This document shows, piece after piece, positions 29,752 through 46,747 of a stretch of DNA of 64,000 bases; within the stretch, counting starts at the first letter, position 1; every line of letters starts with the position of its first letter. Where the stretch lies: contig JAFGBT010000006.1 of the NCBI GenBank assembly GCA_016933025.1, positions 155,078 through 219,077 on the forward strand. Reading direction: 5' to 3'. The translations under genes were made by a program, and so were the position numbers. The notes below the pieces were generated by a model, which saw only the letters and a program-made list of their open reading frames with translations, made no database searches and was not told the DNA's origin. The DNA is from Spirochaetota bacterium. GTDB lineage: Bacteria > Spirochaetota > UBA4802 > UBA5550.

Positions 29752-30216
29752 TCAGTCTATGACCCTGAAAAACTCTATGTCCCGGATGCTCCCCTTCGGG
29801 TTCATTGAAAAGACCGGCTCGACACGGGCGCCGATCCTGATCTTCTTCTCGTCCTCAACGCTGATATAATGCTGGAAAAGCGTGTCCGCTCCGTCCAGCC
29901 TGATGAAGCCGTATCCGTAGGGCACGGGCTTCTGATGACCCGTCTCCGGATCAATGAACGCGAACCGGAGGATCGTAAAGGTGCCGATGACGCCTCCCGG
30001 TCCCACCTCGACCCAGTCGTTCATCTCCACAAAGCAGTCGCCGCAGACGCCGCGCGGGGGAATGTAGACCTTTTTGCATTTCGGGCACCTGATACCCATG
30101 AACCGCCGGTTGTCCCGTATCTCGGTGAAAAATTTGCTCCCGTGCATCCCGATTGAATAGGTGAAGGGCTGCACCGCGTCGCCTGACTCAATAATGATAT
30201 GATTGCTGTCTGCCAT
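29752..30216 (-). CDS. DUF35 family protein (Zn ribbon plus OB-fold)
   Basis: CPKC...CGDC ribbon; OB-fold C-terminal half; GGAGG RBS at the trimmed start. Confidence 0.8.
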   Translation of the reverse strand: MADSNHIIIESGDAVQPFTYSIGMHGSKFFTEIRDNRRFMGIRCPKCKKVYIPPRGVCGDCFVEMNDWVEVGPGGVIGTFTILRFAFIDPETGHQKPVPYGYGFIRLDGADTLFQHYISVEDEKKIRIGARVEPVFSMNPKGSIRDIEFFRVID

Positions 30217-30240
30217 GATATTTCCTCCACTTTGCTCCAA

Positions 30241-30352
30241 TCTTTTCTCTTAAGCCCCCTCCGGGCGTTGCACTGAACGGTTCAACAGGCTTGTCCTGAG
30301 CTTGCCGAAGGGCTCACCACAGGCCTGTCGAAGTGGGGTTTGGGGGGATGGT
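30241..30352. repeat. G/C-tract modular repeat copy R5
   Basis: AAGCCCCCTCCGGG ... GTGGGGTTTGGGGGGATGG modules. Confidence 0.5.
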
Positions 30353-30360
30353 TCTCAGAA

Positions 30361-31518
30361 TCATTTCGGCTTCTTCCTGCCGTGAAGTATCATGTCTGTC
30401 CACCAGCACCCGCCGAATCCTGTGCTGAAGGCGAAATTTACGTCCGGCACCTGCCGGCCCTCGGCCTTACCCATCACCTGCATCGCGGCCTCTGCGCACC
30501 GGATAAGCCCGGTCGCGCCGATCGGGTTGCAGGATATAACGCCGCCGGACGGGTTAATGGGGAGCTCACCCCCCATGTCGGTATTCCCGTCCCAGATGTA
30601 CTGCGGCGCCTCGCCCGGGCCGACGATTCCCATGTCCTCTATCCAGATGAGCCCGCCGAACGAATAGGGCTGGTACAGCTCGATCACGTCCAGCTCCTTC
30701 CGGGGCTCTTTGATGCCGGTTTTCTTCCATATCTCCTGCGCGCCCTCCCGCATGCTGGTGAGGCGGCCGTAATCGGCGTCCCCCAGGTAGGTGTAGGAGT
30801 GACGCGCCGCGGTCGCCCATATCCAATCCGGCTTCGGCGCGATCTTCTCCGCGAGTTCCCCGCTCGCCATGATGACCGCGCAGGCGCCGTCCGTGCGCGG
30901 ACAGACGTCGAGTAGATGTATCGGGTCCGCCAGCATCGGCGACGCCAGGACCTCCTCCAGAGCCACCTCCTTGCGGAGCTGGGCGTGGGGATTGTTCATC
31001 GCATGCCTGCGGTCCCGCACGCTGACGCGCGCGCCGTCCCGATCGGTCGCGCCGTACCGTGCCATGTAGGCCTGCGCCTCGGCGGCAAGGCCCGATATGG
31101 CGCCGGCAAACACCAGGCGGTCCCATATCGGATCGAACGCCGTGGTGATGGCGCCGGTCGTGTCCGACTCTGAATTCTTCTCCCAGCCGATTATCAAAAC
31201 TTTATCGAACATGCCCGACGCCACAAGATGGTACCCGCCGATCGCCACGGTGCACCCGGTCGTCCCGCCGGTCGTGAGCTTGATGATCGGCTTCATGGTC
31301 CCGCCGGAGCCGTCAACGCTCCAGCAGTCGACATAGTTTATTCCCTCGAAATGGTCCATGTTGCCAATGACGACGGCGTCGATATCCTTCATTTTCAGGT
31401 CAGCATCTTGAAGGGCGCGCACCACCGCCTCGTTTATCAGCTCCTGCCCGTTGACGTCGGGGCGATGGCTCTTATGGAACGTCTGGCCGGTTCCTACAAT
31501 CGCAACTCGTTTTCCCAT
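30361..31518 (-). CDS. SCP2-type thiolase-like protein, subfamily A (Cys present at the nucleophile position)
   Basis: TTGGTTGCTVAIGG...LVASGMFD...IGWEK; C-terminal GGVISCNPIGATG. Confidence 0.85.
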   Translation of the reverse strand: MGKRVAIVGTGQTFHKSHRPDVNGQELINEAVVRALQDADLKMKDIDAVVIGNMDHFEGINYVDCWSVDGSGGTMKPIIKLTTGGTTGCTVAIGGYHLVASGMFDKVLIIGWEKNSESDTTGAITTAFDPIWDRLVFAGAISGLAAEAQAYMARYGATDRDGARVSVRDRRHAMNNPHAQLRKEVALEEVLASPMLADPIHLLDVCPRTDGACAVIMASGELAEKIAPKPDWIWATAARHSYTYLGDADYGRLTSMREGAQEIWKKTGIKEPRKELDVIELYQPYSFGGLIWIEDMGIVGPGEAPQYIWDGNTDMGGELPINPSGGVISCNPIGATGLIRCAEAAMQVMGKAEGRQVPDVNFAFSTGFGGCWWTDMILHGRKKPK

Positions 31519-31529
31519 GGCTTCTCCTC

Positions 31530-32672
31530 CTACCTGTCCCCCAGGAGCCAGACGCAGTGCGACTGGCCGCCCAGACCGTTCACCCCGTGGACGAGGCCCG
31601 TTCTCGCCTTCTTCACCTGAAAGCCGCCCGCTTCGCCCCTGATCTGCCTGACCACGGCGGCCATGCTGTACAGACCGGCGGCGATAACCGGATGACCCGA
31701 CAGGAGCCCGCCCGAAGGATTTACCGGAAGCCTGCCGTCAATATTGTACTCCCCTTTTTCAAGATGCCTTCCCGCCGACGATTCATCGGCGAGGCCCATC
31801 TCCTCGAGCCACATGAGCTCCTGGTAGGTAAAGGCGTCGTGTATTTCAGCAACATCGATCTCCGTGCGCGGGTCTTTTATCCCCGCCATCGCGAATGCCT
31901 TCTTCGCCGCCTCGGTGAGCGACCTGGCTCGCGAAAGATCCCGGTCACCGAAGAAAAAAGAGTCGGCGCAGAGAGATACTCCCCTGATCCACACCGGCTT
32001 CTTCCTGAATTTCTTCGCAACCGACTCATGGGCAATGACAACCGCCGCGCACCCGTCTGAGACCGGCGAGCAGTCGAGCTTTCGGAGCGGATCTGCTATC
32101 ATCTCGGAATCCAGGACGTCTTTAACCGTGATATCCATGGGGAGCTGGGCGTGAGGGTTCTTGAGCGCATTGCCGTGGTTCTTCACCGACACCATCGCCG
32201 TCTGCTCGCGCGTTGTCTTCGTCCGGTGCAGGTAGGCATTCGCCTGCATCGCGCACGCGGTAATCATGTCCATACCGAGCATCCGCTCGTAGATCGGGTC
32301 GAAGGCGCAGTTCGTTATCAGGCTCGACACGCTCTCCGATCCCTTGGAATGGCCCGTCACCAGGGTTGTTTTGTACGATCCCGAGAGGCACCTTGCCATG
32401 CCGTAAAAGGCGCCGTACGTTCCGTCGCCCTCCACGCAGGAGACGTTTTTGTGCGCGGCGCCGCTCGCGTCGCCGACGGCCATGCAGGATATCGTTCGCC
32501 CGTCCCAGAAATCGCTTGATGTGGTGACGACATTGTCGATGTCGTCGATGGTCATGCCGGCGTCCTCGAGAGCCCCGTTCACGGCCTGCCATGCCATGTC
32601 GGCAAAGGTCTCACGTACCTTCCTCTTCTCGATCTTGACCGTCCCGACGCCTACTATCGCTGCTCTGTCCAT
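31530..32672 (-). CDS. SCP2-type thiolase-like protein, subfamily B
   Basis: Thiolase fold (YGMARCLSGSYKTTLVTGHSKG...NPSGGLLSGHPVIAAG); 11-nt gap to the subfamily A partner. Confidence 0.85.
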   Translation of the reverse strand: MDRAAIVGVGTVKIEKRKVRETFADMAWQAVNGALEDAGMTIDDIDNVVTTSSDFWDGRTISCMAVGDASGAAHKNVSCVEGDGTYGAFYGMARCLSGSYKTTLVTGHSKGSESVSSLITNCAFDPIYERMLGMDMITACAMQANAYLHRTKTTREQTAMVSVKNHGNALKNPHAQLPMDITVKDVLDSEMIADPLRKLDCSPVSDGCAAVVIAHESVAKKFRKKPVWIRGVSLCADSFFFGDRDLSRARSLTEAAKKAFAMAGIKDPRTEIDVAEIHDAFTYQELMWLEEMGLADESSAGRHLEKGEYNIDGRLPVNPSGGLLSGHPVIAAGLYSMAAVVRQIRGEAGGFQVKKARTGLVHGVNGLGGQSHCVWLLGDR

Positions 32673-32687
32673 GTCTGCGCTCCTTTT

Positions 32688-33155
32688 CTATCGTACCGGC
32701 CTGAAATGGGATATATCGCGGATGGTCCCCTTCCGCTCTTCGGCGAAGACCGCCTTCACGCGCATGCCGATGCTCACGTCTTCCGGCTTAACATCGCCCA
32801 GATAATGGAGCAGGGCCGTGTCCGCGCCGTCCAGCTTCACCAGCCCCCAGATGACCGGCGCCTTCAGCTCCCGGGGAATTGACGCGAATTGCCGCCGGGC
32901 GACCGTGAACGAGAGAAGCGTCCCCTCATCGGATACATCCACCCACTCGGTATCGCCGGTGAAGCAGGCCGGGCAGCTCTTGCGCGGCGGGAGATACGTC
33001 TTCCCGCAGGTCATGCATCTCGTCGCGATGATTTTCTTCTCGTCCCTGAGAGAGATGAAAAACCTGGACGCCGTGTCCCCCGCCCACCATGAATAGGGGA
33101 TATTGATCATGCTCTCGTATACCATCGGCTCAATGCCCTTGAATTGGTCTGTCAT
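32688..33155 (-). CDS. DUF35 family protein (Zn ribbon plus OB-fold)
   Basis: CMTC...CPAC ribbon; OB-fold. Confidence 0.8.
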   Translation of the reverse strand: MTDQFKGIEPMVYESMINIPYSWWAGDTASRFFISLRDEKKIIATRCMTCGKTYLPPRKSCPACFTGDTEWVDVSDEGTLLSFTVARRQFASIPRELKAPVIWGLVKLDGADTALLHYLGDVKPEDVSIGMRVKAVFAEERKGTIRDISHFRPVR

Positions 33156-33175
33156 GATGATTCTCCTTGTAATAC

Positions 33176-33272
33176 CTCACCCCCTTCCCCCTCTCCTCAA
33201 AGGAGAGGGGGAGAAGAAGAATATCGCATTCTTCTCCTCCCCTTCTTCCTGTGGGAGAAGGGGCCGGGGGAT
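33176..33272. repeat. G/C-tract modular repeat copy R6 (CCCTCTCCT CAAA GGAGAGGG and CCCCTTCTTCC TGTG GGAGAAGGGG hairpins)
   Basis: Read directly; same module style as R2 and R7. Confidence 0.5.
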
Positions 33273-33277
33273 GATGT

Positions 33278-34048
33278 CTATCTTCCTATAATATACCGGT
33301 GCGGGTCCACCTGCTCGCGGAGGATCCGCAGTTCATCCGCGTGCGGGGGCTCGGTATCCGTGAGCCTGTCGGCCCACATCAGCTCGAACCCGCAGTTCGC
33401 CTGGATGTCCTCCCGGTCATAGCCGGGATTGACGCTCAGAACCTTCATCCGCTTCGATATCTCATCGAACCCCATGATCGCCATGTTGGTGATGATCCGG
33501 TAGGGCCCGGTACCCTTCGGCAATCCCGCCTCGTAGCGGGAATTCCCGCCCTGCAGATAACCGGGCGAGGTGATGAAATCGCACTTTTCGGTGAATCGCT
33601 TGGCGTCCTGCGGGGTCATCATCATGGTCCTCCAGCAGAGGGAGGCCAGGTCGTTCGCCCCGCCCGATCCCGGAAAGCGGACCTTCGGCCTCGCGTGGTT
33701 ATCGCCGATCATCGTCGAGTTGATGTTGCCGTACATGTCGATCTGCGCGCCGCCCAGGAAGGTGTAGTCCACCATCCCGCGCTGGCATGTCTCCATCACG
33801 TCCGGCATGGAGCTGGCGAGTATCGCCTTGTGAAAGGTCCGCGAATCGCCGACGGATATCGGCATCGAGGGCAAAAACGGCGCCACGCCGCCCGCCTCGA
33901 ACATGATGGTGAGATTGGGCGAATGCGTCTTCTGCGCCAGCATAGCGGCCGCGCACGGGGCGCCGGTGCCGACCACGACCGTCGCGCCGTCCTCCAGGTT
34001 GCGCGCCGCAACGCATATCATCAATTCCATAGGGTTATAGTCTGCCAT
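33278..34048 (-). CDS. CoA-transferase subunit B (glutaconate/3-oxoacid CoA-transferase family)
   Basis: Family I CoA-transferase beta-subunit conservation (GGAQIDMYGNIN, SGGANDLAS). Confidence 0.8.
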   Translation of the reverse strand: MADYNPMELMICVAARNLEDGATVVVGTGAPCAAAMLAQKTHSPNLTIMFEAGGVAPFLPSMPISVGDSRTFHKAILASSMPDVMETCQRGMVDYTFLGGAQIDMYGNINSTMIGDNHARPKVRFPGSGGANDLASLCWRTMMMTPQDAKRFTEKCDFITSPGYLQGGNSRYEAGLPKGTGPYRIITNMAIMGFDEISKRMKVLSVNPGYDREDIQANCGFELMWADRLTDTEPPHADELRILREQVDPHRYIIGR

Positions 34049-34049
34049 C

Positions 34050-35054
34050 TCATTTCTCCTTGTTGTTCGCGACCAGGTTCTCGATGGCGCGAAGCTTCAG
34101 GATCCTTTCGATCCCGCCGTTCAGCTCCAGGTATTCGTAAAAGTCCTTCGTGTCGAGGATTTGCTTCCGGTAAAATTTCCTGAACTCTTCCGGGTCCTTC
34201 TCAACGGTGAGCCACTCCCTCAGGTGCTCCTCGTCGGAAAAATACTCGTAGGGCATGTTGCCGGGGTAGCTCCCGAAGGGGACCTCGACCACTGCGTCGA
34301 CGCACCAGAAGGGAATGAAGGTCGCATGGGGCGTATGCCTGATTTCATCGTTCGGTATGATCCGCTCAGTGGTCAGCACAACCCGCTTCGACGCCCGCGC
34401 AAGGTCCTGGTCGGACACGGACGCGCCTAAAACGCGGGCATTGCCGTACACGTCGCACTCATGCACGTGGATGGCGGCAAAATCCGGATAAAGCGCCGGG
34501 TATGCCGCGTATTTCTGCCCGGTAAAGGGACACAGTATCTCCTTCGCCGCGCTGTAGTTAAAGGTGTCGGTGCCGAGAATGTTGCGCGCCGGCAAAAAAG
34601 AGAGCCCCATCGCCGCCGCCTTGAGCCGCCACGAGAGCGTCGCGTTGGTCCACTCGGTGAGCTTGATATTCCCGCTCTCGACGGCGCGGCGGGAACTCGG
34701 CGAAAGGCCCCGCGCCTCCAGTCCTATGATGTAGGCGATGTCGAGACGGTCGATGCAGCCGCCCCCGACCAGGATCTGCATGTCATGGGTCGAGGTATGG
34801 CCGGCAAAGGCCAGATTTTTCTTCCCCTGACGCGCGATCTCATGAAGAACGGCGGTCGGGATCCTGTTGGCCCCGAACCCGCCGATGGCTATGTAGTCCC
34901 CGTCTTTCAACAGGGTCTTCACGGCCTCCCGCACCGTAGTGACCTTGTTCACCATGGCGCGCGACTTCTGCCTGAAAAATTGACGCGCGGCGTCGGCATC
35001 CGGGTCGGAGAACAACTGGTTCCGGCCTTCCTTCAATTCAACTGGATTGCTCAT
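34050..35054 (-). CDS. CoA-transferase subunit A (GctA-like)
   Basis: GctA-like length and motifs (IAIGGFG...); 1-nt gap to subunit B. Confidence 0.8.
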   Translation of the reverse strand: MSNPVELKEGRNQLFSDPDADAARQFFRQKSRAMVNKVTTVREAVKTLLKDGDYIAIGGFGANRIPTAVLHEIARQGKKNLAFAGHTSTHDMQILVGGGCIDRLDIAYIIGLEARGLSPSSRRAVESGNIKLTEWTNATLSWRLKAAAMGLSFLPARNILGTDTFNYSAAKEILCPFTGQKYAAYPALYPDFAAIHVHECDVYGNARVLGASVSDQDLARASKRVVLTTERIIPNDEIRHTPHATFIPFWCVDAVVEVPFGSYPGNMPYEYFSDEEHLREWLTVEKDPEEFRKFYRKQILDTKDFYEYLELNGGIERILKLRAIENLVANNKEK

Positions 35055-35105
35055 AATTCCGCTCCTTGGCTCTTAAGGTTTTCCCGGTACTCAATCCATT
35101 CCGGA

Positions 35106-36947
35106 TTATTTCTTTTCGAATAAACCATCCGCTGCCTCTTTCGCGTACATCTCTTCGATGAGGTCCCTGTACTTCTCCTGTACCACTTTGCGCTTGACCT
35201 TCAGCGACGGGGTAAGCTCGCCGCCGTTCTGCGAAAACTCGGTCTTGATGATCCTGAACTGCTTTATTCCCTCGTACCTGGCGAGGTGCGAGTTACGCTC
35301 ATCCACGTGCCTCTGCACAACCGATAGAAACTTCTGATCGTCCAGGAGGCCGGCCGGATCCCCGAAGGCGATGCCTTCCGCCTTCGCGATTCGCGCGGCC
35401 TCCTCGATGTTGATGTTGCACAGGCCGGTCAGGTACTTCCTCTTCTCGCCGATGACGATAAACTGCGTGAACAGCGGGTCCGATTTGAAGAGATTCTCGA
35501 TCTTCTGGGGCGCGACGTTCTTCCCGCCCGAGGTGATAATCAGGTCCTTCTTGCGGTCGGTGATGAGAAGGTTCCCCTCGTCATCGAACATGCCGATATC
35601 GCCCGACATGAAATAGCCGTCGGGGGTGAATGCGTCTTTCGTCTCGTCCGGAAGCTTCCAGTAGCCCCTGATGACATTCCCTCCCTTGATTAAAATCTCC
35701 CCGTCGTCCGCAATTTTGATATCCTCTCCCGGAATCGGCTTACCGGTGGTCCCGATCCGGTAATCGGCGAGGGACTGCATGGTGGCCGGCGCGGTCGTCT
35801 CGGTCATGCCGTACCCCTGGATGACGGTGATGCCGGCGGCGTTGAAGAAGCGGATGATCTCCTCGGCCGTGGGAGCGCCGGACGCGGTCATCCAGGTGAC
35901 CCGCCCTCCCAGCTTGTCCTGGAGCTTCTTGAAAATCATGGCGTAGGCGATCCTGTATTTCAGCTTCAGCCAGAATGGTATGCGCCTGTGCATCTCCCGG
36001 CGCCTGCTGATCCTGCTGCCGACCTTCTGTCCCCAGTAGAACACTCTCTGCTTGAAGGCGGACTGCTCCTGCACCTGCGCCATGATCTTCTGGTAGACCT
36101 TCTCGCAGACGCGGGGCACGGCCAGGATCATGGTGGGCCGCCTCTCCTCGAAGTCGGCCAGCAGGGTGTCGATGCTCTCGGCGTACGAGGCCGTGATGCC
36201 GCAGTACATGCCGTAGAAGTGCCCTGCGATCCGCTCGAACACGTGTGAGAGCGGGAGGAAGGGAACGGTGCAGTCCGTATCCGAGGCAAAATGCGGCCGG
36301 ATCGCGTCGAGCGACTGGACCACCCAGAAAATGTTCCCATGACTGATCATCGCGCCCTTGGGGAGTCCGGTCGTCCCAGAGGTATAGACCAGGGTCGCCA
36401 GGTCGTCCGGACCAACATCGGCCGCCAGCTTCTCGAACAGGTTCCGGTCCGCCTCCTGTTGTTTGCGTCCCAGCTCCATCAGCTCATTGAAGGAAATCAC
36501 CTTCGGGTTCGACCTGTCCGCGTCGCCATCCTCCATGACGACAATCTTCTCCAGTTTCGGGCATTTATCCGCTATCTCGAGTATCTTGGTCAGCTGGTTC
36601 TTATTTTCAGATATGATTATTCTTGATTCCGAATTGTTGAGGATGTATTCTATCTCCTCGGCCACCAGCGTCGGATATACCGGTATGAGGACGCCGCCGA
36701 TTCCCATGATCCCCATGTCGGAATACAGCCACTCGAGGCGGTTCTCGGAGAGAAGAGCCACCATGTCCCCCTTCCGTATGCCGAGATAATACAGGCCGAG
36801 GCCGGTCGCGCGCGCCCGTTCATAATATTCGTTCCAGGAAGCGCCGTGCCAAACGCCTTTCAGTTTTTTCTCTATCGCAAGTCTGTCGCCGTATTTCTCA
36901 ACGCGATTGCGGAAAACATCATTGACGGTCCTTTCTGCTGATTCCAC
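35106..36947 (-). CDS. long-chain-fatty-acid--CoA ligase (AMP-binding)
   Basis: AMP-binding motif TSGTTGLPKG; 613 aa, FadD-like. Confidence 0.85.
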   Translation of the reverse strand: MESAERTVNDVFRNRVEKYGDRLAIEKKLKGVWHGASWNEYYERARATGLGLYYLGIRKGDMVALLSENRLEWLYSDMGIMGIGGVLIPVYPTLVAEEIEYILNNSESRIIISENKNQLTKILEIADKCPKLEKIVVMEDGDADRSNPKVISFNELMELGRKQQEADRNLFEKLAADVGPDDLATLVYTSGTTGLPKGAMISHGNIFWVVQSLDAIRPHFASDTDCTVPFLPLSHVFERIAGHFYGMYCGITASYAESIDTLLADFEERRPTMILAVPRVCEKVYQKIMAQVQEQSAFKQRVFYWGQKVGSRISRRREMHRRIPFWLKLKYRIAYAMIFKKLQDKLGGRVTWMTASGAPTAEEIIRFFNAAGITVIQGYGMTETTAPATMQSLADYRIGTTGKPIPGEDIKIADDGEILIKGGNVIRGYWKLPDETKDAFTPDGYFMSGDIGMFDDEGNLLITDRKKDLIITSGGKNVAPQKIENLFKSDPLFTQFIVIGEKRKYLTGLCNINIEEAARIAKAEGIAFGDPAGLLDDQKFLSVVQRHVDERNSHLARYEGIKQFRIIKTEFSQNGGELTPSLKVKRKVVQEKYRDLIEEMYAKEAADGLFEKK

Positions 36948-37014
36948 GGAACACCTCCTGCATAAAATATTATGCCTGATTCAGACTGTTATATTTCAGT
37001 TCAATATGTATACC

Positions 37015-37054
37015 GCGGCGCCTCCCTGTTTTTTGGGAGACAGGGAGGCGCCGC
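37015..37054 (-). terminator. stem-loop GCGGCGCCTCCCTG(N12)CAGGGAGGCGCCGC downstream of the crotonase gene
   Basis: 14-bp perfect stem; weak U-tract. Confidence 0.4.
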
Positions 37055-37064
37055 ATAACATACC

Positions 37065-37844
37065 TTATCTCCCCTTGAAACTCGGCCTCCGCTTCTCTAA
37101 AAACGCGGCAATCCCCTCTTTCTTGTCCTCGCTCTCCGCAAGCCCTCCGAAGAGCCGGCTCTCCAGCTTCAACCCGTCCGCCAGTGGCATCTTCCCGCCG
37201 ACCAGGACAGCCTCGATGACGGCGCTCACGGCGAGCCGGCCCTTGAACGAAAGGTCCTTCGCGAACTTCATGGCCTCCTCCATGAGGGCGGCATGGGGGA
37301 CGACGCGGTTGACCAGCCCGATCCTCTCGCACTCGGACGCCGGTATGAATTTACCGGTGAGCATGATCTCAAGCGCCCGCGCCGGCCCCAGGAGCCGCGC
37401 CGCCCGCTGGGTTCCGCCGAACGCCGGCATGATGCCGAGCAGGATCTCCGGCAGGCCCATCTGCGCCTGGTCGCCGATGAACCGCATGTGGCATGCCATG
37501 GCAAGCTCGGTGCCGCCCCCCAGACAGAGGCCGTTGATCGCGGCGATTACAGGCTTTCGAAGGTTTTCTATCAGATTTATAATCCCCTGGGCCTCTGACG
37601 TGAGCGCCTCGCCCTTCTCGCGCGTGTCGACTTCCCGCACCTTGTTGACGTCGGCCCCGACGATAAATGTCGGGCCCTCGCCGGTGATTACCACGACCTT
37701 CACCGAATCGTCGGCGGCGATCTTCTTCATCGAGCTTTCAAGCTGGCGCATGGTCTCCTCATCCAGCGCGTTCATCGGGGGGTTGTTGATCTTCAGAAGG
37801 GCAACGCCCCGCTCGTTGACTTCGTAATAGCATTTGTCAGCCAT
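37065..37844 (-). CDS. enoyl-CoA hydratase/isomerase (crotonase family)
   Basis: AAINGLCLGGGTELAMACHMRF; paralog of the 3049-3825 gene. Confidence 0.85.
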   Translation of the reverse strand: MADKCYYEVNERGVALLKINNPPMNALDEETMRQLESSMKKIAADDSVKVVVITGEGPTFIVGADVNKVREVDTREKGEALTSEAQGIINLIENLRKPVIAAINGLCLGGGTELAMACHMRFIGDQAQMGLPEILLGIMPAFGGTQRAARLLGPARALEIMLTGKFIPASECERIGLVNRVVPHAALMEEAMKFAKDLSFKGRLAVSAVIEAVLVGGKMPLADGLKLESRLFGGLAESEDKKEGIAAFLEKRRPSFKGR

Positions 37845-37865
37845 ACAATCTCTCCTCGCTTAAAC

Positions 37866-37905
37866 ACCCTCACCCCTGCCCCTCTCCCACGGGGAGAGGG
37901 TACAC
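37866..37905. repeat. G/C-tract repeat copy R7 (CCCTCACCCCTGCCCCTCTCCCACGGGGAGAGGG)
   Basis: Near-identical to the middle module of R2. Confidence 0.4.
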
Positions 37906-37917
37906 CGTGGCGTGAGG

Positions 37918-39345
37918 TCATTTCTTCCTCAATCCCATGATCGCGCGGGCCTCGTCGCAGGTGGCAATCGGCCTGCCGAGACATTCGGCGACCCCGACCG
38001 CCACCTCGACCAGCTCGTAGCTGCCCTTGGCCAGCTCGCCGTTCGGCATCCTGATATTGTCCTCCAGGCCGACCCGCATGTGCCCGCCGAGGAGGCACGA
38101 CTGCATGATGCACGGAAACTCGTCGGTGCCGACGCCGCAGGTGGTGAAGTTCGCCTTCGGCGGGAGCGCGTTCATCATCGCTATGAAGGTCTCGGCCCTG
38201 AAGGCCTGGCCGCCGGCCACGCCCCAGACGAAATTGAAGTTCATCGGATCGGTGAAGAAACCCTGCTTCGAGATCAACATGGTGTTGTCGAGCCCCCCCA
38301 TGTCATAGCACTCGATCTCCGGCTTCACGCCGTTCTCCTCCATGGCCTTGCCGAAATCCTGCAGCATGGTAAAGGTGTTCTCGAACACGTAGTCGATGAA
38401 GATCTTTCCGGTCTTCCGGTCGATGATACTGAAATTCATCGTATTGGTGTTCAGAGACGCCATCTCGGGCTTGATCTCCACGATCTGGCTGATGCGCTGC
38501 TCGGCGGTCTTGCCCATGCCGACGGCCGAGCTCAGGTTCACGATCAGCTCCGGGCTCTTCTGCTTGATGGCGTCGTGGGTCGCCCGGATCCTGTCGATCT
38601 CGTGCGTCGCGAAGCCGTTGTCCATGCGCGCGTGCACGTGCACCATGGCCGCGCCCGCCTTCCAGCACTTGTGCGCCTCTTCCGCGAACTCCGCCGGCGT
38701 GTATGGGACGCTCGGGTTCTGGTTCTTCATGGTCGCCGCGCCGGTAAGGGCGGCGGTGATTATTACTGGCTTTGACATATCCGGTTTTCCTCCCCTTCGT
38801 TTTTCCTGAGTTTCAGGCTCGTCCGACGGAACCCATTGTTTACGCAACTTGCTGCGCTCGTGTACCGACAGCGTTTCAACCGCCGGCCTGAAGTGATCGA
38901 TGTCGAGAATGGTGCTCGTCGTTTTCTCGGCGAACACCGCCTCAACCTTCATCCCTATCTTGACGTCCTCTATCTTACACTCTTCGACAATATGCAAGAA
39001 GGGCGTGTCCGCGCCTTCCAGCTTGATGAGAGCGAGGACGAACGGCGCCTTTCGCGGCAGGTGCTTGTCGTCGTAGCGCACCACCGTGAAGTTCGTCACC
39101 GTTCCGCTTGAGCCCACTTCGACCCAGTTGTCCCGTATATCCGTTAAATCCTTGTCGCAGACCTGCCGCGGCGGCAGGTACACCATGCCGCAGGCCGGGC
39201 ACTTCACTCCCATTATCTTCTTCTTGTCCCGGATCGTCGTGATGAACTTGCTGCCGACGCGTCCGGCGAAATAGCTGTACGGGAGCGCCATCTTGCCTTC
39301 AATGATGTAGCTGTCTTCATATCCCTTTATTTGCTTATCTATCAT
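37918..39345 (-). CDS. fusion protein: N-terminal DUF35 (Zn ribbon/OB-fold) domain and C-terminal BKACE/DUF849 (3-keto-5-aminohexanoate cleavage enzyme-like) domain
   Basis: Single uninterrupted frame (the ORF track reports 37918-39453). N-half GVKCPACGMVYLPPRQVC plus OB-fold; C-half starts MSKPVIITAALTGA. Start chosen at ATG 39345 with TAAGGAG RBS, 11 nt after the upstream stop. Confidence 0.6.
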   Translation of the reverse strand: MIDKQIKGYEDSYIIEGKMALPYSYFAGRVGSKFITTIRDKKKIMGVKCPACGMVYLPPRQVCDKDLTDIRDNWVEVGSSGTVTNFTVVRYDDKHLPRKAPFVLALIKLEGADTPFLHIVEECKIEDVKIGMKVEAVFAEKTTSTILDIDHFRPAVETLSVHERSKLRKQWVPSDEPETQEKRRGGKPDMSKPVIITAALTGAATMKNQNPSVPYTPAEFAEEAHKCWKAGAAMVHVHARMDNGFATHEIDRIRATHDAIKQKSPELIVNLSSAVGMGKTAEQRISQIVEIKPEMASLNTNTMNFSIIDRKTGKIFIDYVFENTFTMLQDFGKAMEENGVKPEIECYDMGGLDNTMLISKQGFFTDPMNFNFVWGVAGGQAFRAETFIAMMNALPPKANFTTCGVGTDEFPCIMQSCLLGGHMRVGLEDNIRMPNGELAKGSYELVEVAVGVAECLGRPIATCDEARAIMGLRKK

Positions 39346-39356
39346 GTCCCGGCTCC

Positions 39357-40550
39357 TTACTCGTCGATTTCGAAATATTTGATGTCCCAGATATCGCCGG
39401 CCCGTTTTTCCTCCCAGACCGGACGAACGCGCGTTCCCTTCTTCTCGTTCCATCCCATCTCGATCTTTTCAATCTGGTCCTTCCGTATAAAATGAGGGAG
39501 GGTCTCGTTGCCCTTGCATCCGTCCAGGAGAATCATGATCGACCCGTAGGGCGTCTCTCGCGCCACTCCGGTCAGCGGGTCGGGAAGAGCGTAGTAGACG
39601 ACATCCATGTACCGGACTTCTCCCTTCGGCCCGACCTCTACAAATTCAGATACGCGTACCCTGCACTCGGCGCACATCTCCCGCGGCGGGAGCTGTATGC
39701 GGCCGCACTTCGGGCACCGGTTCCCGTATATCTTTTTATCCTTCAGTCCCTTGAGGAACCTGCCCATGACCGGGCCGGTCGCGTACTTCTGGTTGACCGA
39801 GATAATCTTCTTCAACACCAGAAGCTCCTGCTCGGGTACGGCGCCGCCCATCGGGTCCTTGTATTTCTCGAACATGACCGGCCATTTCGTCTGAATGAGG
39901 TTGATATCGCCTTTGGCCGATCCCTTGCCCGCCGCCAGCAGGGTCTGCGCGTCTATCTTACCGAGGATAAAATCGACATAGTCCTTCGCGTCGTTGAATT
40001 CGAGGGTCACGGTCGGATTGCCCTCGATGGTCGTCGCAATCGTGCACTTCTTGTCCTTGACGGATACCGTCCACGTGCCGCCGTCCGGGCCGCCGAGATC
40101 GTAGGCGAACGACGCGTCCACGTCCTCCGCCTCCTCGGGCTTGAATCGCGACACGATCGTCCCGAACATGTCCTCTATGTACTCCCGGGTCGACATCTCC
40201 TTCTTCGCGATGACGAACTTGCGAAACATCCTGCCGGTCTTGCCGAACGCGCCCATGTCGCCCTCAACCTTGACCTTGCCTCCCATGAAGGCGTTCGTCG
40301 CGTCGACCTTGCCGGTGTTCACGCCGACGAAGGTCTCGCCGTCGGCGCTCATCGTCGCGACGCATCCGGTTATTCCGTCGACCCTCTCAACCGCCGCGAG
40401 CGTTCCGTTATACACGGTCACCTTCCATTTTCCTTCCCCGGCGATATCGTATCCGTACGAGGCCGTTACGCCCTGCGCGCCCTCGGGACGGAACCGTTCC
40501 TGCATGGTATTGAATATATCTTCAACTTTAATTCCCCAGTATTCTGCCAT
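39357..40550 (-). CDS. fusion protein: two tandem SCP2 sterol-carrier domains and C-terminal DUF35 domain
   Basis: Two AFMGGKVKVEGDM-type SCP2 signatures, then NRCPKCGRIQLPPREMCAECR plus OB-fold; AGGAGG RBS at the trimmed start. Confidence 0.65.
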   Translation of the reverse strand: MAEYWGIKVEDIFNTMQERFRPEGAQGVTASYGYDIAGEGKWKVTVYNGTLAAVERVDGITGCVATMSADGETFVGVNTGKVDATNAFMGGKVKVEGDMGAFGKTGRMFRKFVIAKKEMSTREYIEDMFGTIVSRFKPEEAEDVDASFAYDLGGPDGGTWTVSVKDKKCTIATTIEGNPTVTLEFNDAKDYVDFILGKIDAQTLLAAGKGSAKGDINLIQTKWPVMFEKYKDPMGGAVPEQELLVLKKIISVNQKYATGPVMGRFLKGLKDKKIYGNRCPKCGRIQLPPREMCAECRVRVSEFVEVGPKGEVRYMDVVYYALPDPLTGVARETPYGSIMILLDGCKGNETLPHFIRKDQIEKIEMGWNEKKGTRVRPVWEEKRAGDIWDIKYFEIDE

Positions 40551-40560
40551 GATTGTCCTC

Positions 40561-41760
40561 CTACCAGTTGAGTTCCTTCTCGAGCATCGTGAGCACGGTC
40601 CACATCGTGCCGCCAAAGCCCGAGGCCAGCGCGTGGTTTACCGGGGTCGGGATCTGGTGATCGCCCGCGCCGCCCCGTACCTGAAGGGCGGCCTCGGCGA
40701 CCCGTACCAGCGCAGTCGCTCCGATCGGGTTCGACGCGATGACCCCGCCCGACGGGTTGATCGGCAGCTTCCCGCCTATCATGACCTCTTTGTCCTCAAT
40801 CAGCCTGAGGTGCTCATCGCCCTTGAGATCGAAAAAGTCCCTGAGCCAATCTATGGCCCACCACGATGCGGGATCGTACATCTCGAACACGTCAAAATAA
40901 TTCAACGGGTCCTTGATGTCATTCCGTTTGAAAAGCTGTTCCGCCGCGAACTTGTGGCTCTTGGTAACGGGGAACGCCCTGTTGTATCCGAAGATGGTGA
41001 ATATCTCTTCCTTGTGGATGGCGATATGGTCCCGAACCCAAACCGGCCGCCGTGACAGCTCCTTCGCCTTTTTCTCGGAGGCGTATATGACCGCGCACGC
41101 TCCGTCCGACTGAGAGCACATCTCGATCAGCTTCAGATCGCCGACGAGCTTCGGGGACGACTTGATCAGGTCGTCGATCTGGCTGAAGTCGAGGCCGAAG
41201 GCGCGGTGCGCGTTCGGGTTAAGGCACGCGTGCTTGTCCATTATGATGCGGTATGTCAGGGAGACCCTGTTGGCCCTCTCGAGGCCGAATTCCCGCGAGA
41301 CATCGTACGCCGATGACCCGGTCAGGGCCCCCGCCTGGATCTTGCGGAACCAGAGCGGGTCCGCCATGTTGGTGATGCCGGCTGTGGTGTGCCCCTCCTG
41401 CAGTTTCTCGAAGCCGATGGCCATGACGATGTCGTACATGCCCGACGCCACCAGGTTGTCCGCGGCGCAGGATATGGTTGCGCCCGACGTGCCGCCCGTT
41501 GTGATCCTGATGCTGTCCTTGCCGTAGGCGCCTGTTCCCAGCATGTGCCACATGTCCGGCTGGTGAATCATCTCGAAGAGCTCCATATTGCCGTGAACGA
41601 CACAGTCGACGTCATTCATCGTCAGGTTCGCGTCTTGCAGCGCGAGGCTGACCGCCTCGTATATCATCTCCGGCTGGTTCACGTCCTCGCGGTGGCTCGA
41701 ATGCTTTGTCTGCCCCACGCCTATTATACCGACGTTTCTGTTCTTTTTTCTGTGTGCCAT
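40561..41760 (-). CDS. SCP2-type thiolase-like protein, subfamily A (Ala at the position of the Cys in paralog 30361)
   Basis: TTGGTSGATISCAADNLVASGMYD...IGFEKL; C-terminal GGVIASNPIGATA. Confidence 0.85.
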   Translation of the reverse strand: MAHRKKNRNVGIIGVGQTKHSSHREDVNQPEMIYEAVSLALQDANLTMNDVDCVVHGNMELFEMIHQPDMWHMLGTGAYGKDSIRITTGGTSGATISCAADNLVASGMYDIVMAIGFEKLQEGHTTAGITNMADPLWFRKIQAGALTGSSAYDVSREFGLERANRVSLTYRIIMDKHACLNPNAHRAFGLDFSQIDDLIKSSPKLVGDLKLIEMCSQSDGACAVIYASEKKAKELSRRPVWVRDHIAIHKEEIFTIFGYNRAFPVTKSHKFAAEQLFKRNDIKDPLNYFDVFEMYDPASWWAIDWLRDFFDLKGDEHLRLIEDKEVMIGGKLPINPSGGVIASNPIGATALVRVAEAALQVRGGAGDHQIPTPVNHALASGFGGTMWTVLTMLEKELNW

Positions 41761-41772
41761 TGTTCTTCCTCC

Positions 41773-42918
41773 CTAAGCTTCCATTACGATAACGGCCTGG
41801 TGCTGGCCGGCGCCGCCGGTCGCGGCCTGGGCGACGGCCCTCTTCACTCCCTTGACCTGGCGGTCGCCCGCCTGACCTGAAAGCTGATAGTAGCATTCGA
41901 TAGCCCGCGCCGCCCCCCCGAGGAGGAGCGGATTGCCGTTGAGATGGCCGCCAGACAGGTTGACATTGAACTTTTCCATACCGCCGTCATCAATCCACTT
42001 ACCGCCCTTCCCTTCATCGGCAATACCGACCCCCTCAGCCCACATCGGGAGCTGGTACGCCGCGTGATCGCTCAGCTCGAAGAGCTGGACGTCCTTTCGC
42101 GGGTCCTTGATGCCCGCCCTGGCGTAGGCCCTCTGCGCGGCTTGTTTCAGCGAGAAGTTCGAGCAAAGATCCCGGTCGCCTATGAAATACCGGTCCATGC
42201 AGCTGCCGTATCCGGTGAGCCAGACCGGTTTTTTGGTGAATTCCTTGACGCGTTCCTCGCAACAGAGGAGTATCCCGTACGCCCAGTCGGTGACCGGATA
42301 CACGTGAAGTTCGCGCAGCGGGTCCGCATACATCGGCGAATTCATCACCTCTTTCTCATCCACTTGTCTGTTCTCCCGCGCGTAGGGGTTCTTCTTAGCG
42401 TTTTTCCTGGAACGGACGACTATCTTCGCCAGGTGCTCCTCGGTAACGCCGGACTTCTCCATGTACTCCCGGGCCTGCAGGGCGTCGACGTTCTGAAAGT
42501 CCATCCCGACCGGCCGGCAGTAAAATGGATCGCAGGCGAGATTGGTCGCCATCCGCCTGCTCTCTCCCTGAGACTCCTTGCAGTGCCCCATGAAGAGTAT
42601 CACATCGTCATGGCCGCTCAGGATACAGGCCATAGCGTACCCGAGCCCGTTGATGCTCTCCTGAGCCATCTTCTCTTCGCCCCTGAAGTGGGCGCCCACG
42701 ACGTCAGTCACGCCGTTGTCTGATATGGTCCGCGCATCGAACACGTCATCGGAGCATGTTATAATGTTTCTGATACCCCTTTCCATGTCAAAGGTGACGC
42801 CGGTCTGCTCCATGATAGGCTCGAAGCACTCGAGCAGCATGTTCTGGAAGCGCATGTGCGCGTATTCCGGCTCGTTCTTGACCTGCGCCACTGCGCATAC
42901 CGCTATTCTTTTACTCAT
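41773..42918 (-). CDS. SCP2-type thiolase-like protein, subfamily B
   Basis: YAMACILSGHDDVILFMGHCKESQGES aligns with the 31530 paralog; GAGGAGG RBS. Confidence 0.85.
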   Translation of the reverse strand: MSKRIAVCAVAQVKNEPEYAHMRFQNMLLECFEPIMEQTGVTFDMERGIRNIITCSDDVFDARTISDNGVTDVVGAHFRGEEKMAQESINGLGYAMACILSGHDDVILFMGHCKESQGESRRMATNLACDPFYCRPVGMDFQNVDALQAREYMEKSGVTEEHLAKIVVRSRKNAKKNPYARENRQVDEKEVMNSPMYADPLRELHVYPVTDWAYGILLCCEERVKEFTKKPVWLTGYGSCMDRYFIGDRDLCSNFSLKQAAQRAYARAGIKDPRKDVQLFELSDHAAYQLPMWAEGVGIADEGKGGKWIDDGGMEKFNVNLSGGHLNGNPLLLGGAARAIECYYQLSGQAGDRQVKGVKRAVAQAATGGAGQHQAVIVMEA

Positions 42919-43019
42919 TACCAATCCTCCTCTCAATTCTTTTACGGCAACGGATCATGATAATACCACCTCGCATAACAGATTTGACATGGGCTTTGAT
43001 ATTGCCGCCTCGTGAATCT

Positions 43020-43568
43020 TCAGACATAACAGTTCCAGAATTTTCCATTCTTAATGGCTTTTAATATGGCGTCCTTTTCGCGCTTCGAGTCGAGCTCTAT
43101 CCATGCCCGCCCGATGCCGATGAGCGTATGCGAATCGTCCGATGCGATCTTGGGATACCGGATGTTCAGCGATTCAAAAATTGTGTCCCGGAAGCCTTTT
43201 GTCGTGATCTCGACGGCGTCAAGGGGGTACATCTTCTCGAGCTCGGCCAGGCGTTCAAGAACCTGTTCCGGCGTTAGATCGTATTCGCCGATGTGATTGA
43301 ATATGTGGAGCACCTCTTCATCGCCCTCTATCTTTGACACGTGGATGTATCCCTTCACAAATACCGTCAGCTCAATCCCGTGAAAAATAATCATGTCGGT
43401 CTTGACCTGTGAATACAGATCGCGGTAATTCGGTTTCACCAGGTAGTCGTGGTCTGTAAAGGCGATAAAATCATACCCTTTTGATTCATAGGCATTGACC
43501 ACCTGCTGCGGCGTCAGCTTTCCGTCAGAGCAGGTCGTGTGAGTATGTAGACATCCTTTTAATAGCAT
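43020..43568 (-). CDS. small PHP-domain phosphoesterase
   Basis: HTHTTCSDG PHP signature; lower local GC. Confidence 0.7.
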   Translation of the reverse strand: MLLKGCLHTHTTCSDGKLTPQQVVNAYESKGYDFIAFTDHDYLVKPNYRDLYSQVKTDMIIFHGIELTVFVKGYIHVSKIEGDEEVLHIFNHIGEYDLTPEQVLERLAELEKMYPLDAVEITTKGFRDTIFESLNIRYPKIASDDSHTLIGIGRAWIELDSKREKDAILKAIKNGKFWNCYV

Positions 43569-43896: not shown

Positions 43897-44538
43897 TCAC
43901 TCCTTGTTTTCAAGGGATTTTTTCAAATCCTTTCCCATCTGATCAAGTATGTATTCCCTGCACCGGTTCAGGGTCATCGAATCGGTGACCTCATACGAGC
44001 GCTCGGGGCGGTCGTTCTTTATGGTCAGGATCGTGCCGCCGCTCGAGGTTGACACGAGGCGGGCCTGCACCTGGAAATAAAAGAATTTTTTCTTCTTCCT
44101 CTTCTTGACCTTTTCGGTCTCCTTCGTAACGGGATTCTTCACGTAATCGATGTATTCAACCCACTTCGTCTCTTCGCTGTTCCGGGTCACGTTTCCGAAC
44201 AGAAGCGCCTGCGCGCCGGTCAGGCGGCCGATCTCCTCGGAGTCCGATACCACCCCGGACTGGGAGCGTTCGATCTCCCTGAGTATCGTCCTCAGTTTCG
44301 CCCGCTCGACAACGTTCTTTCCCGCATCGATGAAGCTGCTCCGGAAGGCATCCTCGCACTCGACAGCGATCGCCCTCGGTATCCCCGGGGCCTTGTCAAA
44401 ATCCATTATCGCGAGCGTTTCGACCCTGTTCATTTCCGACTTGTTCAGCGAAATCTTTGAGGTCGAACAGGACATCATGATGATTGAAATGACCGCCGCG
44501 CCCGTGATAACGCCAATGACACACATTACTCTTTTCAT
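43897..44538 (-). CDS. CsgG-like (COG1462-type) lipoprotein
   Basis: Lipobox IMMSCS; LAIMDFDKAPG...VERAKLRTILREIERSQSG...ALLFGNV pattern; KKRKKKK stretch. Confidence 0.5.
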   Translation of the reverse strand: MKRVMCVIGVITGAAVISIIMMSCSTSKISLNKSEMNRVETLAIMDFDKAPGIPRAIAVECEDAFRSSFIDAGKNVVERAKLRTILREIERSQSGVVSDSEEIGRLTGAQALLFGNVTRNSEETKWVEYIDYVKNPVTKETEKVKKRKKKKFFYFQVQARLVSTSSGGTILTIKNDRPERSYEVTDSMTLNRCREYILDQMGKDLKKSLENKE

Positions 44539-44687
44539 ATATTATGCTCCTGGTACCTGTGGCCGCGCCCGGTAGCCGCGGCATATACTATGCCTGACAT
44601 GGCATGCACGCATTGCAGCAATGATAGCAGCGAAACAATTCCTGTCAATTATAATGCGTGCGGGGTTATAATTATCATGACCGCCCT

Positions 44688-46205: not shown

Positions 46206-46291
46206 AATCTATAATCCTTTTGATAATTAAATCTTAAAGTATAAGAGATAAAATATATAGAGCATGGCGGATGCATCCGCCGCTATATTTT

Positions 46292-46747
46292 TTATTTTTT
46301 CCAGGTACACCCGTGCTCGTACCCGGTAAGGCACGCCCGTTCGTCGCTCTCGTAAAACGTCAGCATGGTTATCAGCTTGAGCAGAAGCATGATCATCCGC
46401 TTGTAAAAGAAGCGGCTCTTCTCCATCGATTCAAGAAAGCGGATCCTCTTTTCCTCGCTTAACCGCGTGAACACCTTTCCATGCCTGGTTAACGCGCCGT
46501 ACTGAACGTATTTCAGCATCACCGGGAAGAGCTTCCTGATCGATGGGTCATAGCTCATGATGAGCTCGCCGGCGCGCGGCAGGAGGTCATAATCGGCGGC
46601 GCCGGGACCGAACGCGCCGCCCCGCGGGATTATTGTGTCCATCACCGACCTGAGTATCTCGCCGCTCCCACCACGGAGCACGCCCGGCCCTGCGATCCCT
46701 TCTGTTCTCTTCATACCGATATCCCTCCGCGAGATTCTTGAACGCAC
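46292..46747 (-). CDS. gluconate 2-dehydrogenase subunit 3-like small subunit of the GMC oxidoreductase
   Basis: LRSVMDTIIPRGGAFGPGAADYDLLPRAGELI pattern typical of small subunits paired with GMC enzymes; start uncertain. Confidence 0.55.
   Translation of the reverse strand: MRSRISRRDIGMKRTEGIAGPGVLRGGSGEILRSVMDTIIPRGGAFGPGAADYDLLPRAGELIMSYDPSIRKLFPVMLKYVQYGALTRHGKVFTRLSEEKRIRFLESMEKSRFFYKRMIMLLLKLITMLTFYESDERACLTGYEHGCTWKK

Follow-up and report, generated by a model that had tools for sequence, protein, structure and literature searches.

Proteins of the DUF35 family have been described as molecular staples or scaffolds (PMC10398937, PMC12329534, PMC12960953), and DUF35 staples are emerging as an organizing principle of thiolase-superfamily multi-enzyme complexes, with examples in archaeal mevalonate synthesis, steroid side-chain aldolases, benzylsuccinate degradation, and Friedel-Crafts acylases. 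In the archaeal ACAT/HMGCS/DUF35 complex, the DUF35 scaffold bridges thiolase-superfamily enzymes and allows channeling (PMC12960953). The signature of a thiolase consists of a Cys, an HDxF motif, and a GHx motif, and Cys-less retro-aldolases and their relatives carry YDHF (Ltp2), YDCY (Sal), or YDCF (SLP) (PMC12329534, PMC12960953). A heteromeric aldol-lyase, Ltp3-Ltp4, has been described for C24-branched sterol side chains in actinobacteria (PMC6678751). The fusion of DUF35 with the SCP2 (sterol carrier) domain already appeared among the domain architectures listed in 2010 (PMC2954200), and we found no functional or structural study of it in the literature. Here, we describe such a fusion, encoded by a minus-strand gene (hereafter, the target) in a 64,000-nucleotide stretch of a Spirochaetota bacterium genome (GenBank assembly GCA_016933025.1, contig JAFGBT010000006.1, positions 155,078 to 219,077; hereafter, the window). 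Its product consists of two SCP2 modules followed by a DUF35 unit. We consider it probable, on balance, that this protein is an adaptor stapled through its DUF35 unit to a heteromer of two thiolase-fold proteins, ThlA and ThlB, with the SCP2 modules holding or handing over the tail of the substrate and a sister DUF35 bringing in a beta-keto acid cleavage enzyme (BKACE) or a hydratase. To our knowledge, the stapled passenger in characterized DUF35 complexes is always catalytic or absent, and the target family, if this reading is true, would be the first staple to bear lipid-binding carrier modules.

The target gene lies in a tightly packed minus-strand operon, between the ThlA/ThlB genes and a gene for a second DUF35 fused to BKACE (open reading frame [ORF] map and Pfam), which is where the first-pass annotation of the window had placed it. 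A longer minus-strand ORF (39357-40616) opens with a TTG at 40616 and contains an internal ATG at 40550. We assigned the start to this ATG because homologues of 395-397 amino acids (aa) cover 100% of the 397-aa product. The sequence between the ThlB stop codon and the ATG at 40550 is GAGGACAATC, and the ribosome-binding site GGAGGA precedes the ATG. The junctions on the two sides of the target are 10-12 nt long, each with a Shine-Dalgarno sequence. The public record of the protein (MBN2158384.1, from a Spirochaetota metagenome-assembled genome [MAG]) is labeled “SCP2 sterol-binding domain-containing protein,” while automated annotation of target-family proteins reads “OB-fold protein/putative sterol carrier protein.”

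The tandem SCP2 modules and the DUF35 unit, both named in the first-pass annotation along with three peptide signatures that are all found in the protein, were confirmed by hidden Markov model (HMM) searches, profile-profile comparison, and structure models. Across the whole target, PF02036 scores 75.2 bits in two stretches (Pfam), and each module scanned alone exceeds the gathering cut-off of 21.3 bits (42.7 bits for aa 13-104 and 39.0 bits for aa ~138-220; E values in Table 1). The modules share 33% identity (E = 7e−16), and we therefore attribute them to internal duplication. In a full-length AlphaFold model, which was built from an alignment of 30 close homologues, both SCP2 folds are confident (predicted local distance difference test [pLDDT] 80-92, aa 11-230). 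Foldseek searches with the modules recovered SdsA1, AF1534, human SCP2, MFE-2 SCP2L, and UbiJ (E = 4e−7 to 1e−3) as well as Pisa1, with archaeal, human, and insect SCP2 among the fold matches and the C-terminal domains of the alkylsulfatases SdsA1 and Pisa1 at the top. The match to human SCP2 and MFE-2 SCP2L extends to sequence as well as fold, and the Pfam family Alkyl_sulf_C also matches the region. The nearest fold neighbors are alkyl-chain-recruiting or acyl-CoA/lipid-binding domains, and the modules of the target presumably bind lipids as well. Mean pairwise identity among orthologues declines from 0.74 in the DUF35 part to 0.70 in SCP2-1 and 0.59 in SCP2-2, an order that fits a constant docking surface combined with a more adaptable ligand module.

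The C-terminal 160 residues of the target are a complete DUF35 unit. Its zinc ribbon, also predicted in the first-pass annotation, matches PF12172 (aa 267-299, E = 3e−8, 33.6 bits against a cut-off of 23.2), and all four Cys of the Cys-x2-Cys-x10-Cys-x2-Cys arrangement are invariant in 71/71 orthologues. The Pfam OB model PF01796, which the same annotation had suggested for checking the OB-fold, has no match on the isolated C-terminal 159 aa even at E ≤ 10; the 44%-identical relative P0123 does match it (E = 1e−6). Despite this failure, the OB-fold assignment holds by profile and structure methods. In hhalign comparisons with the PF01796-positive DUF35s of the cluster, aa 242-395 align with probabilities of 99.4-99.9% (E = 5e−21 to 1e−30) over 133-141 columns that reach the C-terminal residues. 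A phmmer search of PDB sequences with the target matched SSO2064 (3irb, E = 2.8e−11) and the archaeal scaffold 6esq_E, with weaker matches to BbsA, ChsH2-DUF35, and PhlB. The C-terminal third is unreliable in the full-length AlphaFold model (pLDDT 25-64). A model of the DUF35 part only, for which the alignment was enlarged with the paralogous DUF35s of the window, reached a pLDDT of 83.9 and a predicted TM-score (pTM) of 0.71 and contains a helix at aa 260-270. The top 21 Foldseek matches of this model in PDB are all DUF35 proteins (target-normalized TM-score 0.53-0.73). They include the thiolase-fold-binding subunits 6ok1_B, 9myr_B, 5m3k_B, 9vbt, 6esq_E, and 7pxp, and all neighbors other than the lone SSO2064 (3irb) and Trf (6htj) were solved in complex with a thiolase-fold enzyme.

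We identified about 500 homologues of the target in a 90%-clustered collection (E ≤ 1e−3), all from uncultured Spirochaetota, Smithella/Syntrophales, and Thermodesulfobacteriota, and in a 50%-clustered library, the full architecture was found in only a handful of clusters. Among GTDB species representatives, a scan yielded 80 loci, all of them in MAGs from three phyla (Smithella/Smithellaceae/Syntrophaceae, uncultured Spirochaetota/Leptospirales, and Thermodesulfobacteriota). Their taxonomy suggests that the hosts are anaerobes. In tblastn comparisons across the 80 loci, the order PHP-ThlA-ThlB-target, which begins with a gene for a PHP-domain protein, was found in essentially every sufficiently long locus. 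ThlB is directly upstream of the target in nearly all 80 loci, and the PHP gene is located at −3.3 kb in nearly all of them. L081 and L082, which are distant clades, have the PHP gene as well. The DUF35-BKACE gene follows the target in about 65 of the 80 loci, and the remaining operon genes are present in many. An HMM scan showed that a second DUF35, whose orthologue in the window makes up the N-terminal part of the BKACE fusion, begins 12-350 nt past the target stop in 76/76 loci with downstream sequence.

The passengers of the two DUF35s vary. In a BKACE-less subclade of Thermodesulfobacteriota, the second DUF35 is free-standing (~160 aa), and in L082/L083 (44% identity), the core is kept with DUF35 and BKACE as separate adjacent genes. 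In L081, an acyl-CoA ligase is fused ahead of SCP2x2-DUF35 (protein P0122), and a MaoC hydratase is joined to the second DUF35. Variants of 512-514 aa contain a third SCP2, so that the module-2 type is present in two copies, and protein P0143 represents an independent HMGS-like-DUF35-SCP2x2 fusion encoded beside a canonical thiolase. The invariant ThlA-ThlB-target order, the constant second DUF35, the short junctions, the P0122 and P0143 fusions, and the thiolase-bound structural neighbors together lend comparative support to the recruitment of the target to a thiolase-like complex through DUF35, as the first-pass annotation had supposed.

That annotation had also described ThlA and ThlB as an A/B thiolase pair, which did not stand. 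We aligned the five thiolase-fold proteins of the window (23328-24764, 30361-31518, 31530-32672, 40561-41760, and 41773-42936) with the SCP2-thiolase 6hsj and examined HMMER alignments to 6hsj, 7yvy, 6esq, and 4yzo. The nucleophilic Cys is absent from all five. ThlA and ThlB also lack the HDxF histidine and the GHP histidine; in ThlA, the HDxF equivalent is variable among orthologues (S/C/N-D-H/A/Q) and GNP replaces GHP. In the same alignment, the thiolase encoded beside P0143 (L084) shows NFCASG, HDCF, and GHP, which validates the motif alignment. The ThlB motifs TTGGT, MYDP(A/S), SNPIGAT, and GFGGT do not vary among 74 orthologues and persist in the clades with 65% ThlB identity. Within them, Y295-D296 is invariant and is followed by Pro-Ala/Ser. 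Retro-aldolases of the Ltp2/Sal type combine a catalytic Tyr in YD(H/C)(F/Y) with a second Tyr or Cys acid (PMC12329534), for which no position in ThlB could be assigned. The beta-type thiolase-fold proteins of the window have invariant YDP or YQPY motifs, while the family of the alpha-type paralogue Thl_31530 mostly shows YDAF together with GHP, which suggests an aldolase-like protein. Because the thiolase nucleophile is lost, we consider retro-aldol-like chemistry or a scaffold role likelier than thiolysis and reject a canonical thiolytic beta-oxidation complex. The ThlA/ThlB heteromer is probably a retro-aldol-type lyase or a hub rather than a Claisen thiolase, and by analogy it may be an aldolase like Ltp2, Sal, or Ltp3-Ltp4. 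In the conserved cluster (window positions 25754-43568 and loci L001-L080), we identified genes for hydratase, acyl-CoA dehydrogenase (ACAD), ligase, and CoA-transferase but none for a 3-hydroxyacyl-CoA dehydrogenase, and this absence fits a lyase (retro-aldol) or BKACE route better than classical beta-oxidation. The “thiolase” annotations of the window are likely to be functionally wrong, a warning that the label can mislead where the catalytic Cys is found in 0/5 thiolase-fold genes.

Downstream of the CoA-transferase genes lies a second, paralogous quartet of two thiolase-fold and two DUF35 genes. In hhalign comparisons, ThlA pairs with Thl_31530 (score 549), ThlB with Thl_30361 (537), the BKACE-fused DUF35 with DUF35_32688 (324), and the target DUF35 with DUF35_29752 (182). 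If the DUF35s are denoted a and b, and the thiolase-fold proteins alpha and beta, the order is a-alpha-beta-b in the second module and alpha-beta-b-a in the module of the target, to which SCP2x2 has been added at the N-terminus of b and BKACE at the C-terminus of a. The b-type DUF35 adjoins the beta subunit in both modules. The constant ratio of two thiolase-fold genes to two DUF35 genes parallels the alpha-beta-beta-alpha assembly that has been solved for Sal/Shy-DUF35 and Ltp2/ChsH2-DUF35, and together with the quartet paralogy it points to ThlB as the subunit on which the target DUF35 would dock.

We propose that the target, probably non-catalytic itself, would act as an adaptor subunit in a multi-protein acyl-CoA-processing complex. 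Its DUF35 unit (helix, C4 zinc ribbon, and OB-fold) would dock on a thiolase-fold subunit, most probably ThlB, in the manner of ChsH2-DUF35/Ltp2, Shy-DUF35/Sal, BbsA/BbsB, PhlB/MucC, or the archaeal DUF35 with their thiolases. From the gene linkage, we infer that the Cys-less thiolase fold would be DUF35-bound here, as it is in Ltp2 and Sal. The docked SCP2 modules, two here and three in some relatives, would sit at the mouth of the substrate cleft and capture, solubilize, or pass on the hydrophobic tail of an acyl-CoA or a free lipid acid. The second, paralogous DUF35 would dock on ThlA, carrying BKACE in the window, the MaoC hydratase in L081, and nothing in one subclade.

Several points weigh against this proposal. 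The evidence for a complex in the target family is comparative throughout, and ThlB was chosen as the contact by gene order and paralogy. The failure of PF01796 leaves room for a docking surface that may differ from that of characterized DUF35s, and one DUF35-fold protein, Trf (6htj), has an assigned function unrelated to thiolases. Moreover, the 2010 paper on SSO2064 proposed that DUF35 itself binds acyl-CoA instead of stapling, with DUF35s as non-covalent acyl-CoA delivery proteins (PMC2954200). Along these lines, the target could be a free-standing acyl-CoA or lipid binder whose linkage to ThlA/ThlB reflects a shared pathway only. We find this improbable, given that all later structures show DUF35 stapling thiolase-fold enzymes and that the 2:2 gene stoichiometry, constant across both paralogous quartets, speaks for defined hetero-complexes. 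A chance or annotation artifact (low complexity or a mis-called ORF), which the PF01796 failure and the poor C-terminal third of the first full-length model might have suggested, was refuted by the approximately 500 homologues with 100% coverage, by the independent significance of each domain in HMM, profile-profile, and structure comparisons, and by the invariant zinc ligands.

Other alternatives concern what the SCP2 modules do. They could form a fixed part of an active site, as a tunnel extension or lid for ThlB, BKACE, or the ligase that sets the chain length. The SCP2-like C-domain of alkylsulfatases helps to build a hydrophobic chute, and SdsA1/Pisa1 are the best structural matches of the modules, which Alkyl_sulf_C also matches; the linker from SCP2-2 to DUF35 is also short, and in Sal the DUF35 itself shapes the substrate cleft (PMC12329534). 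We nonetheless regard a fixed role as rather unlikely, since the presence of two or three modules with otherwise identical partners is easier to explain by carriers arranged as beads on a string, and the same didomain occurs on very different enzymes (ligase, HMGS-like, SDR-MaoC [SDR, short-chain dehydrogenase/reductase], and FMN reductase). SCP2 proteins are also known to interact with membranes and to move lipids between them, and UbiJ, which is among the fold matches, belongs to a type of SCP2 domain that organizes membrane-associated metabolons. The didomain might accordingly serve in membrane or lipid-droplet targeting or in lipid sensing and localize the complex at an insoluble substrate with no delivery of molecules. 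The core contains no conserved membrane protein, and no amphipathic or transmembrane feature was identified, though no dedicated test for these was run; a targeting role thus seems to us a distant prospect.

The operon, apparently one for the breakdown of lipid-type compounds, is transcribed in the order PHP, ThlA, ThlB, target, DUF35-BKACE, enoyl-CoA hydratase, acyl-CoA ligase, and CoA-transferase A and B, followed by a hairpin, the DUF35-Thl-Thl-DUF35 module, a SpoIIE-like protein, a TetR regulator, and ACADs (Table 1).

Table 1. Coordinates of the target gene, the domains of its product, and the associated genes in the window
Feature	Position	Strand	Basis or remarks
PHP-domain metallohydrolase, small, first core gene	43020..43568	minus	182 aa; Pfam PHP and PHP_C
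ThlA, alpha-type thiolase-fold protein	41773..42936	minus	likely start 42918; GNP for GHP
ThlB, beta-type thiolase-fold protein	40561..41760	minus	no nucleophilic Cys; probable docking partner of the target DUF35
Target gene, SCP2-SCP2-DUF35	39357..40550	minus	397 aa; NCBI MBN2158384.1; ORF and exact public match
SCP2 module 1 (aa 1-118)	40197..40550	minus	PF02036 E = 7.7e−11 alone; pLDDT 85-92; SCP2 fold matches
SCP2 module 2 (aa 119-236)	39843..40196	minus	PF02036 E = 1.1e−9 alone; type duplicated in 3xSCP2 variants
Short linker and N-terminal DUF35 helix (aa 237-266)	39753..39842	minus	focused model; alignment to canonical DUF35 N-terminal segment
C4 rubredoxin-like zinc ribbon (aa 267-300; C279, C282, C293, C296)	39651..39752	minus	PF12172
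DUF35 OB-fold (aa 301-397)	39360..39650	minus	hhalign, AlphaFold, Foldseek; no PF01796 match
Second DUF35 (a-type, C3D zinc site) fused to BKACE	37918..39345	minus	Pfam BKACE, OB_ChsH2_C, zf-ChsH2
Crotonase-type enoyl-CoA hydratase, optional operon member	37065..37844	minus	
Long-chain-type acyl-CoA ligase	35106..36947	minus	FadD11-like (below cut-off)
Two-subunit CoA-transferase, 3-oxoacid family	33278..35054	minus	A 34050-35054, B 33278-34048
Paralogous second quartet	29752..33155	minus	DUF35(a) 32688-33155, Thl alpha 31530-32672, Thl beta 30361-31518, DUF35(b) 29752-30240

In the PHP protein, the metal-ligand motifs DHD, E66, H76, H92, and DDxH are invariant, and its similarity to CehA/McbA-type hydrolases and TrpH-like phosphoesterases is weak. 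The start codon of the DUF35-BKACE gene (ATG 39345) is preceded by AGGAG. Its BKACE domain matches PF05853 over the whole profile (312.8 bits, positions 1-274 of 274) and stays under every NCBIfam equivalog cut-off (e.g., Kce, 272 versus 382). The zinc site of the fused DUF35 (near aa 49-66) reads Cys-x2-Cys-x10-Cys-x2-Asp, with the Asp in 55/65 orthologues and Cys in 10, and recalls the C3H1 variant reported for Shy-DUF35. A strong hairpin with a 16-bp stem and 7 GC pairs (33208-33242, minus strand) lies between CoA-transferase B and the second module, where it could act as a terminator or attenuator and mark the border of two transcription units; a promoter/terminator scan showed no enrichment over shuffled sequence.

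The region 28185-29738 encodes a SpoIIE/PP2C-like protein (weak Pfam match) and a TetR protein (28185-28811), which are kept at the cluster end in many loci, and in distant clades a TetR gene is found immediately before the PHP gene. As a candidate ligand sensor, this TetR could help to identify the substrate. Upstream of the operon (43897-47666) are genes for a GMC-family flavoprotein oxidoreductase, a small partner resembling gluconate 2-dehydrogenase subunit 3, and a CsgG-like lipoprotein, a set conserved in several Spirochaetota loci (L002, L008, L010, L037, and L043). Two further GMC genes are located at 1350-2720 and 52602-54281, and the GMC genes could provide an alcohol-oxidizing front end for the pathway. 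A flagellar export/basal-body block (6036-13186; FliF, FliG, FliH, the FliI ATPase, FliJ, and an SLT transglycosylase) is unrelated to the target and consistent with a spirochaete host.

A long or branched hydrophobic acyl chain is a plausible substrate because the SCP2 fold resembles alkyl-chain-recruiting domains, the ligase is FadD11-like, if below the cut-off, and the cluster contains ACADs. The hydrophobic substrate put forward in the first-pass annotation is in this sense plausible, if unproven; its suggestion of a sterol or hopanoid found no support. NCBIfam matches and the rest of the window contain no specific pointer to sterols or hopanoids and no ring-degradation genes. By NCBIfam, the ACADs of the cluster are generic, a GMC oxidoreductase matches cholesterol oxidase over 61 C-terminal residues only (102 bits against a cut-off of 850), and the PHP protein is only weakly CehA/McbA-like, and we therefore rejected a specific assignment to sterols.

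The varied passengers also allow a broader conjecture, about which we are doubtful: that the Cys-less ThlA/ThlB hub and its two specialized DUF35 staples form a hitherto undescribed “plug-in” metabolon of syntrophic or fermentative anaerobes, onto which SCP2 lipid carriers, an acyl-CoA ligase, BKACE, or a MaoC hydratase could be swapped. Where BKACE is the passenger, it would receive acetyl-CoA straight from the hub, at which the acetyl-CoA is released or held, and would split a lipid-derived free beta-keto acid to yield acyl-CoA and acetoacetate, and the co-encoded CoA-transferase would recycle the acetoacetate. If true, hydrophobic acids would have an ATP-independent entry into beta-oxidation, from which energy-limited syntrophs like Smithella would benefit.

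The cluster proteins of the window are 72-94% identical to those of Smithellaceae/Syntrophaceae MAGs (L003, L005, L009, and others), with 92-94% for Thl_30361. Because these values are far above the expectation between phyla, they suggest that the whole cluster has recently moved by horizontal transfer, or else mis-binning. In L058, which belongs to the BKACE-less Thermodesulfobacteriota subclade, an NMO/FabK-like flavoenzyme and a formylglycine-type sulfatase follow the core (12213-14628). Tandem SCP2 domains (x2-4) also occur in other enzymes of the library (P0179, P0205, P0232, P0254, and P0158), including MFE-2-like SDR-SCP2n-MaoC hydratase, FMN-reductase-SCP2x3, and acyl-CoA ligase-SCP2x2 without DUF35. 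Such multi-SCP2 “carrier arrays” seem to recur among these metagenome-derived proteins.

The system is compact, with four to six genes, and widespread in Smithella/Syntrophales, uncultured Spirochaetota, and Thermodesulfobacteriota. The record names of its hosts suggest anaerobic digesters, peat, and sediments as habitats, and what becomes of hydrophobic substrates and necromass lipids in such settings is poorly understood. Our literature searches returned no paper mentioning DUF35 together with BKACE and none on Smithella with a sterol carrier or on beta-keto acid cleavage enzyme with Syntroph*.

Among described systems, the steroid side-chain hydratase-aldolases ChsH1-ChsH2(DUF35)-Ltp2 and Shy(DUF35)-Sal share with this locus a Cys-less thiolase fold flanked by passenger-bearing DUF35s. 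The DUF35 model of the target superposes on ChsH2-DUF35 and Shy-DUF35 with target-normalized TM-scores of 0.68-0.72, the second DUF35 of L081 is fused to a MaoC hydratase as in Shy, and the invariant Tyr-Asp of ThlB occupies the position of the Tyr-Asp that opens YDHF and YDCY. The passenger of ChsH2 and Shy, however, is a hydratase, whereas here it is a non-catalytic SCP2 didomain, with BKACE on the second DUF35. In contrast to Ltp2 and Sal, ThlA and ThlB are diverged paralogues that would together form a heteromer, and YDP(A/S) of ThlB lacks the His, Cys, or Tyr partners. In sequence, ThlB is nearer to true SCP2-thiolases and archaeal ACAT (E = 5e−24) than to Ltp2 (E = 4e−10), and the hosts are uncultured anaerobe lineages rather than aerobic steroid degraders.

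Like ThlA and ThlB, Ltp3 and Ltp4 are encoded by adjacent, diverged “lipid-transfer protein” thiolase-fold genes and are thought to form a heteromeric lyase (PMC6678751). ThlA and ThlB match broad NCBIfam families named “lipid-transfer protein” or “thiolase domain-containing,” but their membership in Ltp3/Ltp4 was not established, as NCBIfam scores fall far below the cut-off (e.g., 258 versus 514). Presumably, PRK07937 corresponds to Ltp4 and PRK08313 to Ltp3. The Ltp3/Ltp4 system differs in that no SCP2-DUF35 or BKACE partner has been described there.

As in the eukaryotic SCP-x (thiolase-SCP2) and MFE-2 (SDR-hydratase-SCP2), SCP2 would be coupled here to a thiolase-fold or beta-oxidation enzyme. 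Instead of a direct fusion, the coupling in this locus would be non-covalent, through the DUF35 staple; the SCP2 domains are tandem repeats (x2-3), the thiolase catalytic triad is missing from the partner, and the peroxisomal targeting of SCP-x and MFE-2 is irrelevant in a bacterium. The SCP2-fold accessory domains of SdsA1/Pisa1 (C-domain) and UbiJ/UbiT similarly recruit hydrophobic substrates to an enzyme or metabolon, but they are single-copy, belong to other enzyme contexts, and have no DUF35.

Finally, the DUF35 matches 6esq_E, 5m3k_B, 9vbt, and 7pxp relate the target structurally to the archaeal ACAT/HMGCS/DUF35 complex, its bacterial derivatives PhlABC and MucABC, and BbsAB, and the relative P0143, with HMGS-like-DUF35-SCP2x2 next to a canonical thiolase, is a further point of similarity. 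The locus in the window has no HMGS-like partner, and the Cys kept in PhlC, MucB, BbsB, and ACAT is absent from its thiolase-fold proteins. No SCP2 module is known in any of these four complexes. Compared with known DUF35-stapled thiolase-superfamily complexes, this locus is unusual in its carrier passenger, its BKACE passenger, and its Cys-less heteromeric hub.

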